A stretch of 32,000 nt of DNA from Fastidiosibacter lacustris. GTDB lineage: Bacteria; Pseudomonadota; Gammaproteobacteria; Francisellales; Francisellaceae. Shown here piece by piece: positions 24,241-27,200 of the stretch (the stretch's first letter is position 1; each line of letters opens with the position of its first letter). Where the stretch lies: assembly GCF_003428155.1 (NCBI RefSeq), contig NZ_QLIR01000004.1, forward strand, positions 30,001-62,000, given 5' to 3'. The position numbers were made by a program, and so were the translations under genes. Under the pieces are notes generated by a model. It did no database searches. It saw nothing but the letters and a program-made list of their open reading frames with translations, and was not told the DNA's origin.

Positions 24241-27200
24241 ATGCCAGATCATCAAGAATTACTAAATCAGCTAGAAGAGATAAAAAGTAAGACACTACTT
24301 ATCGAGATTTCAAAGGATAGAGGGAATCTTAGCTTATTGCAACGTTATGTTGATTCCCGACGTTTAGAAAAAGATCGTGATGCACGAGGTAATTTTAATG
24401 ACTATCTTCAAACGAAAATAGCAAAAGGGGAATTACAGCTATATAAAGAAAATGGTAGTTTGGTCGTTAAAGAGAAAAATGCTCAGCCCTCTTCTTTAGA
24501 AGCTTATCCATACCAAAACGGTGAACTTGTTGTTGCTAATATTTGTAATGTACAGATAGGTTTAGATCCTGAACACCCTTCTTCAGAGTATGATGAGGAA
24601 AACATAGACATTGCCGATGGAGATTTTTCTGGTAGTACATTTTCAAGTGTTTATTTTTATCCTGGTTGGAAACAAGAGTGGCAAGTAGATAAAAACGAAT
24701 ATCGTATTGATACTCAAACTCAAAGTAGCCTTCAAAATGTAGTATTACGTGATTGCCTTTTTGATAAGGTTACCTTTAAAAATGTAGATTTGAGTAAAGT
24801 TGATTTTCGTGGTACAAAATTGAAAAATTGTTCTTTTTATGGTTATGAACGAAATAGCCGATTATTAGATCATTTATATCTAGATTATTATGATCCACAA
24901 TTTGTACATAAGCTTGGTATATTTACAATCAAACAGGAAGCATCACTAAAATGGTATAGTGAGCATGAGCAAATTGAAAATAAGTTCAAAAAAGAGCTAA
25001 ATCAGAAAGTTCAAACCTTAGAAAGTGAACAGGCAAAAAATAAGAGCTTTTGGGATAAGGCTGCCAATAAATTCGTAGGTATATTTTGGGAAACTGAAGA
25101 AAACCGAAAATTCAAGGAGAAAATAAAACACGAAACACAAGAAATTGAAAAACAAAAACAAATAGCATTGCACGCACATGAGCAAAAGTTACTAATTAAT
25201 TTAAAGGAGAGAGTACAGTCTGATCCATGTTATATCCCTATGGACACTAAAGTTGTTAACAGTAAAAAGGTGTTATTAAAAGCGACAAAAGAAGATTTGC
25301 AATCTTATGTAAATGCTTGTAAACATTCTGAATCAGTTATCCCTTTAAACAATTTTATTTTGGAGCAGCACAAAGAGAAGTCTAACGGTAATCCTTTAGG
25401 TGGTTCGCAGGAAAAGTTGACTTATCACGCTAATTTTAGTGATGAAAACTTGGTTATTGAAAATATGGACTTTTCTGGTCTTGATCTTTCTGGTGTGATT
25501 TTCGCTAAAGTGACATTTAAAAATTGCAAGTTTGATCATGCTAATTTAAGTGCAAGTTGTTTTGAAGGGGTAAAATTTGATGGTGATAATTCATTTAAAG
25601 ATGCCACATTGAATGATGCTAATTTAATTGGAGCTCGAGCTATCAATGGTGCAAAAGTCGATTTTGAAAATGTCAAAATGATTAGAGCACGTATGATGAA
25701 AAGTGAATTCCAGGGTAGTAATTTTAATGGCGCTATAGCTTATGCTGCTGATTTCACCCATGCGAATATTGATAAAGCAACTTTAGATAAAATAAATTTG
25801 AATTATGGTGATCTTGAGCATGCTAATTTAAGAGCTGTGACAGCTCGTTTACAAGCACAATTTAAAAACGCAAATTTGACTCATGCGATATTAGATCGTG
25901 GTAAGTTTGATCGTGCTAACTTTAAAAATGCAGTTATGCGATATACGCATGCTGTTCATACTGTGTTTGATGGTGCAAACATGCCAAACGTCAATGCAGA
26001 AAACGGTAATTTTTCTTATGCTCACCTAAACAAAATAAAGGGCAAGAATATCAACTTTATGGATACGAAGTTGATTTATGCCTCTCTGCATGATAGCGAT
26101 CTAGAAAATGTCAAATTTAATAAAAACACTCTTCTGTTAGGAGTAGATCTAAAAGATGCAATAGGTGCAGAAGGTTTACGTGAGTTGCTAAGGGAACAAG
26201 AAAAGATTCAAAAGCGATTTTTGGGTAGAAGTCGTTATGCAATATGCCAAAATAATGAAGATGGGAGCAATGATCGTTATACATGCCAAAAGCTTGGTGC
26301 AGCAGTATTATCTACTGTTTTGGCAGGGGGGAGTGCTTATTCATTTGCAGGAATATTTGCAGGTCTATCAGCAGGAGCACTTGCTGGCTATATTAGTCAA
26401 ACTGGTTTAGAGCGGATTAAAGAATCTTATTTCAAAGAAAGAGGGTACATCGACAATATTTTGGGTGATAAATTGGCAGAGCTAGGTGCAATTGCCTGTG
26501 CAGCAGGTGTGAATAGTTTAGATAAGGCGGTGATCACGTTGCCTTTGGCCGTTGCATTGTGTACTGGTATAAGTATATTGTCACCAGGTGCGAATATGGC
26601 TTGGCTTGTAGGAGGGGGTGCTGCTCTGTATACAGGTGCAAACTTATATACAGGGCAACAAGAAGGAAATCGGTTTAAGTATCTTATCAGTAAAGGGTTA
26701 ACTTGGTTAGGAGGTGCTGCAACCTTTGTTGGGCTAAGCTCAATGGGTAATTGGTTTAACCAAGTGTCAAATATGATATATTATGGGGCAATTTATGGCG
26801 CTGTGAGTGGAGCATATAAGGCTTATCAACGATTGTTTAATGAAGAAAACATCACCCCTGAACAGATATATTGTGAATCTCGGGATCAGTTAGAACAAGT
26901 TAAAGGAAAGATTCAAGGAACAGGGCAAATATGGTCTAATACACGTGAATTTGTGCTGCAAAAGTTCTATGAATGGAAGCGCACGTTAATCATTGGATTG
27001 GCTGCGTTGTTAGCAATTTTAGCAACACCATTACTTGGAGAGTTGATAGGTGTAGCTATTGCAACTAATGTCTTAATTGGTTTGGCATTAGTAACAGCAA
27101 CATTGGCGATAGGATATTTATTTTTTTATGATTCATTGTTTTTCTCAAACTTAAAAACAAAATTGATAAATCTTACAACAGATAAGCCAGATAATGAAAA

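Follow-up and report, generated by a model that had tools for sequence, protein, structure and literature searches.

What does the C-terminal part of a long pentapeptide-repeat protein do, when it carries an apparently perfect glycine zipper and several hydrophobic stretches long enough for helical hairpins? The question is raised by an open reading frame (ORF) of Fastidiosibacter lacustris, placed in the Gammaproteobacteria (Thiotrichales), in a stretch of 32,000 nucleotides (contig NZ_QLIR01000004.1, positions 30,001 to 62,000; hereafter the window), which starts with rpoB and rpoC, the remainder being chromosomal. The ORF (24241-27432, 3192 nt, on the + strand as are all parts of the protein given below) translates into 1063 residues and corresponds to WP_116963573.1, annotated in F. 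lacustris as 'pentapeptide repeat-containing protein'. An earlier reading made from the letters alone (the sequence-only reading) had set its C-terminal region apart as a module with possible pore or channel activity. Residues ~664-966 are a conserved module of ~300 aa, hitherto undescribed, C-terminal to a long pentapeptide beta-helix; we give a probability of about 0.5 to the reading that it anchors, by several membrane hairpins, a protein that is probably host-directed.

Conservation delineated the module. An exhaustive phmmer search with residues 661-975 against 1.84 billion 50%-identity cluster representatives returned 27 matches, 20 of them at E<1e-10; two (P0020 and P0023) were repetitive artefacts, and about 23 were counted as relatives. 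These were mostly 1090-1315 aa long and carried the module at the same C-terminal position, in a common order of parts: N-terminal alpha/beta domain, short beta-helix, coiled coil, long pentapeptide beta-helix, C-module and a disordered tail rich in lysine and glutamate (K/E-rich). Pfam and NCBIfam recognised the pentapeptide repeats only (aa ~130-200 and 393-640), with no credible match for aa 660-1063, and scans of all members with Pfam, NCBIfam and PADLOC yielded no family for the module. The proposal that the C-terminal region is a module of its own was borne out.

Translation of 24241-27432 recovered all the peptides that had been singled out: the 'perfect glycine zipper' SFAGIFAGLSAGALAGY (aa 701-717, 26341-26391), LAELGAIACAAGV (aa 745-757), LPLAV...GANLY (aa 767-803), LTWLGGAATFVGLSSMG (aa 820-836), IYYGAIYGAVSGAY (aa 846-859) and the hydrophobic block TLII...LFFY (aa 915-963). 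In the first of these, glycines stand at 704, 708, 712 and 716 (G704-x3-G708-x3-G712-x3-G716), and the query shows the sequence pattern by which Kim et al. (2005) defined glycine zippers in transmembrane (TM) helices, (G/A/S)xxxGxxxG or GxxxGxxx(G/S/T). For the family, the label 'textbook glycine zipper' proved overstated, as two of the four glycines were not conserved. In the module alignment (A1, 17 members; alignment position n is protein residue n+658), column 704 was Gly in 17/17 members and column 708 in 16/17, while column 712 was Gly in 4/17 and Ala in 10/17, and column 716 Gly in 5/17 and Ala in 10/17. Column 705, directly after the first glycine, was Pro in 14/17, the exceptions being the query and one further member with Ile and another with His, and column 720 was Asp in 12/17, with Gln in the query. 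The four-Gly pattern occurred at this site in 4-6 of 17 homologues, and a complete Gly stripe was confined to members lacking Pro705, namely the query, P0005 and the short form P0017, where it was displaced to the neighbouring helix face.

Small residues were far more constant than glycine itself. Gly, Ala or Ser (G/A/S) occupied columns 704/708/712/716 and 707/711/715/719 in 13-17 of the 17 members, the adjacent stripe 707/711/715/719 alone (A707, A711, A715 and S719 in the query) in 13-15. As judged from the alignment, the conserved feature is G-P-x-x-G-x3-[AG]-x3-[AG]-x3-D, with two neighbouring small-residue stripes predicted to run across four helical turns, and not a four-Gly zipper. Other zipper sites recurred near 691, 766, 778, 845, 849 and 950, and every member held 5-16 GxxxG motifs and 2-10 three-membered zipper motifs. 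Composition accounts for part of this, the C-module being 12% Gly, 12.5% Ala and 13% Leu. Since shuffling reproduced GxxxGxxxGxxxG in 4.9% of cases for the C-module and in 2.2% for the whole protein, the four-Gly zipper alone is only mildly unusual and nearly explained by composition. A run of nine small residues at period 4, from A687 to S719, was found in 0.3% of shuffles; the extended stripe, and above all its conservation, is not a product of chance. A stronger argument than the shuffles for the reality of the feature is that about 23 distantly related proteins share the module.

Model helix boundaries, family hydropathy and a census of charges together indicate that the module comprises eight apolar, Gly/Ala/Ser-rich helices in four hairpins (aa 685-720, 763-800, 817-857 and 915-963). 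They are preceded by a polar entry motif (aa 664-684, 26230-26292), S-R-Y-x-x-C-x-x-N-x-D-G-x-N-D-R-[FY]-x-C-Q, with Y666, R679 and Q683 invariant in the alignments and C682 conserved in at least 90%. Hairpin 1 (aa 685-720, 26293-26400), delimited from the models and the Hessa and Eisenberg scales, consists of helices 685-703 and 705-720 around a turn at the invariant G704; its second helix holds the glycines G704/G708/G712/G716 as well as the stripe A707/A711/A715/S719. Polar connector 1 (aa 721-756, 26401-26508) contains the most conserved motif of the module, G-Y-I-[ND]-N-x-L-G-D-[KR]-L-A-E-[IL]-G-A-x-A-x-x-x-G in alignment A1, with a mean of 3.1 Lys+Arg (K+R) per sequence and a predicted local distance difference test (pLDDT) score of 87-92 in the module model. 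Hairpin 2 (aa 763-800, 26527-26640; helices 763-779 and 783-800, from the model, hydropathy and a Hessa sum of +1.3 kcal/mol for 763-781) has an uncharged turn, S781-P782-G783. Hairpin 3 (aa 817-857, 26689-26811; helices 817-834 and 836-857, from model and hydropathy) is rich in G/A/S/T/Y and is missing from the short paralogues P0017 and L012.

Polar connector 3 (aa 858-914, 26812-26982) bears, in the alignments, a G-x-[RT]-P-E-x-I-Y motif whose P873 and E874 do not vary in A1, and next to it an amphipathic helix (hydrophobic moment, muH, 0.29-0.40), with ~8 K+R per sequence; the query has an 18-aa insertion there (about aa 895-912) and G893 in place of a conserved Pro. Hairpin 4 (aa 915-963, 26983-27129), recognised from Hessa energies and the charge census, pairs helix 915-933 with helix 944-962 about a turn near P931-G934, and terminates in a conserved G-Y-L motif (G958, Y959). 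Residues invariant in A1 were R679, Q683, G686, L690, G704, G742, D743, L745, A746, E747, G749, A752, G756, G849, P873, E874 and Y959, the entry motif and the connectors with their flanks accounting for most invariant positions. An internal duplication among the four hairpins was considered and rejected, with hhalign probabilities below 4%, the same as for column-shuffled controls.

The last hairpin differed from the others in its predicted insertion energy. Negative Hessa sums were obtained in the query only at 915-933 (-0.46 kcal/mol) and 944-962 (-1.68 kcal/mol), and across the family only the first helix of hairpin 4 was consistently about 0 or below (-2.9 to +0.9 kcal/mol). Apart from the zipper segment, the upstream helices ranged from +1.3 to +3.9 kcal/mol. 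The block had been described as ~48 uninterrupted hydrophobic residues; its hairpin length holds (49 aa), but P931, E935 and N943 interrupt it. With basic flanks and an almost uncharged turn family-wide (0.6 K+R in the turn against ~8 in the preceding connector), it qualifies as a hairpin of two TM segments joined by a short loop. Insertion energy favoured these windows and not the zipper: because its summed Hessa energy was about +3.4 kcal/mol (the sum also found for hairpin 1), the zipper segment is not an autonomous TM helix. On the Eisenberg scale the zipper segment, with G704 at the helix break, falls in the zone of cooperative TM helices (mean hydrophobicity <H> 0.46-0.53, muH 0.07; 0.5-0.6 and ~0.1 for hairpin 1 as a whole). 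Helices 1-6 had mean hydrophobicities of 0.46-0.60 and the last two of 0.60-0.82, and since hydrophobic moments were ~0.1 in all of them, these apolar helices are not of the surface-seeking amphipathic kind.

Charges alternated along the module. Turns, given as 1-10 or 4-11 residues long, had 0.0-0.6 K+R and 0.0-0.12 Asp+Glu per sequence, and the preceding segment and the three connectors 3.1-7.9 K+R each. Uncharged turns alternating with basic connectors are the pattern expected for membrane hairpins inserted from one side (positive-inside rule).

Two AlphaFold models, both monomer predictions, agreed with this arrangement at modest confidence. The module model (17 input sequences) had a mean pLDDT of 65.9 and a predicted template modelling (pTM) score of 0.58, and was all-helical and most confident at the conserved motifs; the full-length model (20 input sequences) had a mean pLDDT of 71.3 and a pTM of 0.63, exceeding 95 in the beta-helix and falling under 50 for 769-807, 822-844 and 893-1063. 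Predicted helices spanned 678-703, 705-730, 740-776, 783-808, 811-834, 836-867 and 873 onward, in agreement with the family hydropathy profile. As both models break the helix at G704 (678-703 and 705-730), the first zipper glycine would be a hairpin-turn residue; a zipper along one continuous helix fits neither these models nor the Pro that follows this glycine in most members. Remote homology gave no lead: Foldseek of the module model against PDB remained at noise level (best E=0.04, TM-score at most 0.21), with matches scattered among ABC transporters, cation-diffusion facilitators and alpha-pore-forming toxins, and a profile search of PDB sequences returned only a 51-residue membrane peptide (E=0.025). 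No homology to the membrane domains of VacA, colicin, SLATT or HalA was detected in profile and library searches.

If the module is an anchor, its parts would work as follows. The last hairpin, alone hydrophobic enough for self-insertion, would insert with both ends on the inner side (N-in/C-in) and anchor the protein, and the three marginally hydrophobic hairpins upstream would insert or dock cooperatively, or stay at the interface. The upstream helices may pack through flat small-residue faces, the zipper on helix 705-720 being one of them. All connectors, the disordered tail and the ~660-aa N-terminal part, beta-helix included, would share the cytosolic side, and the beta-helix would be displayed at the membrane surface as a binding scaffold. 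More weakly, the target may be a host membrane reached after secretion, in the manner of two-TM-segment (two-TMS) type IV effectors. TM effectors secreted by type IV systems typically have two TMS of moderate hydrophobicity, short loops and N-in/C-in topology, and two-TMS proteins make up a large share of the type IV transmembrane effector repertoire (PMC12981334).

Within the anchor reading, the evidence leans towards a host-directed location. The protein has features of an effector: the gene stands alone, its neighbours not being shared among homologous loci, no N-terminal signal peptide was recognised in the 1063-aa sequence, and amino-acid replacements between close strains cluster on the beta-helix. 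The absence of conserved neighbours, together with basic C-termini in most rickettsial members (last 30 aa net positive in 16 of 21 homologues scored), supports the host-directed reading. So does the comparison with 'Ca. Nebulobacter yamunensis', an obligate endosymbiont of the ciliate Euplotes aediculatus that shares 99.38% average nucleotide identity, a value at which the two count as one species, and an identical 16S with F. lacustris (PMC9837558). Its orthologue (JAMBMW010000006.1, locus L013 6001-9192) was intact, syntenic and 99% identical, with 8 nucleotide differences in 3192 nt from the window's 24241-27432. Seven were non-synonymous (R558G, N560D, M607R, D608G, S615Y, H617R and A643V), all in codons 558-643, i.e., in the last coils of the beta-helix, and the single synonymous one affected E885, so the module protein was identical in both. 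By chance, clustering of this kind would have a probability of roughly 7 x (86/1063)^6, about 2e-6, and the beta-helix surface may be under diversifying selection between the free-living strain and the obligate symbiont.

The family's distribution points the same way. Ten loci emerged when 185,579 species-representative genomes (GTDB) were scanned with the family alignment; the labels of nine read 'Ca. Midichloriaceae', 'Ca. Bandiella', Rickettsiales or uncultured Alphaproteobacteria, that of the tenth just 'Proteobacteria'. Genome-resolved members, which are Midichloriaceae and other Rickettsiales plus F. lacustris, came from host-associated lineages throughout, and the family is nearly restricted to intracellular bacteria of protists, many metagenome members having no taxonomic assignment; a host-membrane target is suggested by this lifestyle, shared by genome-resolved members of two bacterial classes. 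The exhaustive C-module search gave no match named Rickettsia, most matches being unnamed metagenome proteins. The complete chromosome of 'Ca. Bandiella' (OZ245923.1) encoded two paralogues, at L007 3475-7305 (1276 aa) and L012 5590-7077 (495 aa). The short form, similar to P0017, lacks the pentapeptide domain and hairpin 3 but retains the Cys-loop, the conserved motifs and hairpins 1, 2 and 4, from which it follows that the module can occur with no repeat domain attached. The Midichloriaceae whose first descriptions came from the ciliates Paramecium and Euplotes include 'Ca. Bandiella woodruffii' (PMC4701390), and the Euplotes strain that hosts 'Ca. Nebulobacter yamunensis' harbours a second accessory symbiont, 'Ca. 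Cyrtobacter zanobii' (PMC9837558). On the simplest reading, a stand-alone gene of rickettsial origin would have been acquired by the Fastidiosibacter/Nebulobacter lineage.

Several points weigh against a host-directed anchor. As the module is modelled by AlphaFold with modest confidence (mean pLDDT 66), the hairpin arrangement rests mainly on sequence patterns, and the membrane status of hairpins 1-3 depends on the scale chosen (Eisenberg's cooperative TM zone against Hessa sums of +1.3 to +3.9). The highly hydrophobic last hairpin (Kyte-Doolittle 2.3) would favour capture by the signal recognition particle (SRP) or YidC in the bacterium. F. lacustris reportedly lacks virD4 and virB5 (PMC9837558), and the last 30 residues of the query are net negative (-2), unlike the basic tails of most homologues; secretion of the protein is thus a weaker proposition than its anchoring. 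The invariant GD[KR]LAE and RPExIY motifs are left unexplained by an anchoring role and hint at an extra activity or a partner.

The same observations feed the best-surviving alternative, a resident inner-membrane protein that is never secreted and whose hairpins anchor a large cytoplasmic scaffold with an endogenous role, for example in envelope, division, or DNA or protein mimicry. SRP/YidC insertion in N-in/C-in topology would suit a protein with no signal peptide and a very hydrophobic, basic-flanked last hairpin, and it would agree with the reported lack of virD4 and virB5, with the net negative tail of the query and the absence of a demonstrable translocation signal, and with the position of the loci among housekeeping genes. 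We nevertheless regard it as rather unlikely. All genome-resolved members, from two classes, are host-associated, with none from named free-living taxa among the 1.84 billion representatives and 185,579 genomes. The gene lies in a block of lower GC content at third codon positions (GC3) adjoining a tRNA gene, suggesting acquisition, the amino-acid changes between free-living strain and symbiont fall only on the beta-helix surface, which is more typical of a surface facing a partner, and such repeat proteins have been listed as putative secreted effectors of Rickettsiales (PMC10847448).

The hypothesis put forward by the sequence-only reading, a pore or channel assembled through glycine zippers, appears unlikely. 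Helix 705-720 and the other Gly-rich helices would associate with their like through the small faces and enclose an ion-conducting pore, in a membrane of the host or of the bacterium, the beta-helix perhaps forming a cytosolic 'crown' as in HalA. The hypothesis draws on the GxxxGxxxGxxxG and neighbouring Ala stripe of the query, on the two-stripe small face conserved across the family with its many GxxxG motifs, and on marginally hydrophobic, non-amphipathic helices in Eisenberg's cooperative TM zone; glycine-zipper membrane toxins (Tde1, TelE, CdzC/D) and HalA (PDB 9nyi), a pentapeptide-repeat protein that forms a tetrameric TM ion channel, provide precedents. Against it stand the conservation of only two of the four zipper glycines, the Pro after the first of them in 14/17 members and the position of G704 in a turn in both models. 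No sequence or fold similarity to the pore formers and channels searched was found, the HalA match being limited to the repeats, and the locus showed no immunity-like neighbour and no type VI or type VII secretion system (T6SS, T7SS), contact-dependent inhibition (CDI) or other toxin-delivery context. A partnerless, unregulated pore in reduced symbiont genomes would also need self-protection, none of which was seen. A pore would be compatible with the small-residue face and the many GxxxG motifs, but nothing specific speaks for it.

A bolder version, which we consider a little more doubtful still, would see in the module a channel or membrane-remodelling domain of a new class, self-assembling, packed by glycine zippers and put into host membranes by protist endosymbionts of two bacterial classes. 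The beta-helix would then serve as a cytosolic gate or scaffold, in a eukaryote-directed analogue of HalA, and the gene would have passed horizontally between co-resident ciliate symbionts.

Very improbable is an antibacterial, membrane-depolarising toxin of the T6SS, T7SS or CDI type with a cognate immunity protein: glycine-zipper motifs are typical of several such effectors, but no VgrG, PAAR, Hcp, LXG, CdiB or Rhs element and no small TM immunity ORF adjoins the gene, its neighbours are not conserved, and PADLOC, Pfam and NCBIfam gave no toxin match. Least credible is divergence of the module from a known family of transporters or 2TM effectors: since the matches to Nramp (PF01566, 15.2-16.8 bits against a gathering threshold of 29.8, aa 907-962 only) and SLATT_1 (NF033634, 16.4 bits against a 41-bit cut-off, E=0.0066, aa 898-966) are sub-threshold, confined to the Leu/Ile-rich last hairpin and present in the query only among 17 members, they are compositional, and the transporter homology that would have refuted the sequence-only reading is not there.

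Upstream of the module, the N-terminal region (aa 1-392, 24241-25416), known from the full-length AlphaFold model, alignment A2 and a Pfam Pentapeptide match at 162-199, is conserved family-wide (A2) and comprises an alpha/beta domain (1-120), a short beta-helix (130-215), a coiled coil (236-315) and a second alpha/beta domain (325-380). Next comes the long right-handed pentapeptide-repeat beta-helix (aa 393-640, 25417-26160; PF00805 E=2e-34, model pLDDT >95), which matched HetL, Qnr, MfpA and AlbG in Foldseek (E down to 1e-9) and phmmer. With 117 bits against a cut-off of 20.2, tandem A(D/N)LXX pentapeptide repeats, which build a right-handed quadrilateral beta-helix, are a property of the whole protein and not of the flagged module. 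The C-terminal tail (aa 964-1063, 27130-27429) is polar, of low complexity and K/E-rich, and is predicted to be disordered (pLDDT 25-37).

Around the gene, a block of low GC3 (19705-28572; 0.22-0.27 against 0.27-0.33 in the housekeeping genes upstream) begins directly after tRNA-Glu (19705-19780) and may be a tRNA-adjacent island. Besides the target gene, it contains a histidine kinase, a lipoprotein-like ORF, an orphan ORF of 401 aa and two regulators, the first of OmpR type; taken together, the gene's neighbours fall into a two-component system, a type IVb pilus cluster and orphan genes. The 401-aa ORF (22947-24152, +) ends 88 nt upstream on the same strand, matched nothing in Pfam, NCBIfam or PADLOC and is conserved in Nebulobacter, where it is annotated with 398 aa. 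An operon partner or conserved neighbourhood was looked for and rejected, as 12 homologous loci held no counterpart of the 401-aa ORF or the lipoprotein-like ORF, nor of the regulator downstream. The sole ORF in the 424-nt downstream gap is 33 aa long, and a scan for promoters and terminators gave counts no higher than shuffled expectation.

The downstream regulator (27856-28572, +) belongs to the OmpR family, with a DNA-binding domain at E=3e-17 and a degenerate receiver domain at E=2e-4. By eye, its acidic pocket reads 'IVGVD' and the phospho-acceptor position is apparently Ser ('DLLVVSS'), features from which it may be a phosphorylation-independent, atypical response regulator. The type IVb pilus cluster (29155-31393, +, continuing at L013 10916-15192) includes a bundlin/PilS-like pilin with an N-methylation motif (29155-29688), a 278-aa protein of no assigned family and TcpQ (30629-31393), a secretin coming next in the Nebulobacter locus. 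Elsewhere in the window, 10862-12499 (+) encodes a 545-aa type-B carboxylesterase (Pfam COesterase, E=9e-109) with a GC content of 52.5% and a GC3 of 57%, against 27-33% in its neighbours, a contrast that points to a gene gained horizontally in recent times, possibly one of eukaryote-like kind.

The family is large, well conserved and unannotated, and is found in Midichloriaceae (Alphaproteobacteria) and in Fastidiosibacter/Nebulobacter (Gammaproteobacteria), both of which include endosymbionts of ciliates (Euplotes). Almost nothing is known of host manipulation by the bacterial symbionts of protists and ciliates (PMC9837558), and a distribution across both groups makes the protein a concrete candidate host-interaction factor, probably passed between symbionts by gene transfer. 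Since F. lacustris can be cultured, the module is open to genetic study of a kind impossible in obligate symbionts. A channel or membrane-shaping device would define a new membrane-active domain, and a mere anchor would still be a useful marker domain for annotating Rickettsiales effectors. The candidate is testable, and it comes from a bacterium that can be cultured and is closely related to an obligate symbiont of ciliates.

Among known systems, HalA, the DNA-gated ion-channel effector of Hailong anti-phage defence (PDB 9nyi; PMC13434031), likewise fuses a pentapeptide-repeat domain to a TM domain. The match (NCBIfam NF051894, E=9e-13, 48 bits against a cut-off of 250; 9nyi_A, E=9e-4, aa 403-452 only) covers ~50 repeat residues, however, the C-module is dissimilar, no HalB-like nucleotidyltransferase is encoded nearby, and HalA has 338-371 aa against 1063 in the query; it is an architectural analogy and not a relative. 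A role in anti-phage defence (Hailong or SLATT) was rejected, with no PADLOC match and repeat-level or sub-threshold matches only. Glycine-zipper toxins and channels (the VacA N-terminus, Tse4 and Tde1 of T6SS, TelE of T7SS, CdzC/D of Caulobacter) share tandem GxxxG motifs on an apolar helix and a hydrophobic composition rich in Gly, Ala and Ser, and VacA has a four-Gly register (G14/18/22/26) like that of the query. They differ in that the query shows no homology to them, has a zipper only half conserved with its first Gly in a Pro-containing turn, lacks an immunity gene or delivery context, and is 5-10 times larger and mostly beta-helix scaffold.

PipB and PipB2 of Salmonella (pathogenicity island SPI-2) and the rickettsial cREM-4 share with the query a pentapeptide beta-helix as main soluble domain and an intracellular bacterium as producer. 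The NCBIfam PipB2 and PipB matches were at the level of repeats (39 against 354 and 33 against 274 bits, far under the cut-offs), and to our knowledge neither PipB nor PipB2 has a TM module. cREM-4 is an RvhD4-binding protein of ~950 aa with an internal pentapeptide repeat, found in Rickettsiaceae and one species of Midichloriaceae (PMC11077975).

A further likeness of design is to the two-TMS effectors of type IV secretion systems and the chlamydial Inc proteins with their bilobed hydrophobic domain. Shared are a block of 40-60 aa forming two helices around a short uncharged turn with basic flanks, a large soluble domain on the same side, a disordered tail, intracellular producers and lone genes. 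Sequence homology to described effectors is absent, and the query differs in that its anchor is C-terminal and is joined by three extra, marginal Gly/Ala-rich hairpins and conserved polar motifs into a domain of ~300 aa. As a kind, repeat-protein scaffolds that are tethered through hydrophobic hairpins at the C-terminus are already known from intracellular bacteria; what is new is the domain itself, absent from all libraries searched, with its design of four hairpins and invariant polar motifs and its spread over Midichloriaceae and Fastidiosibacter.

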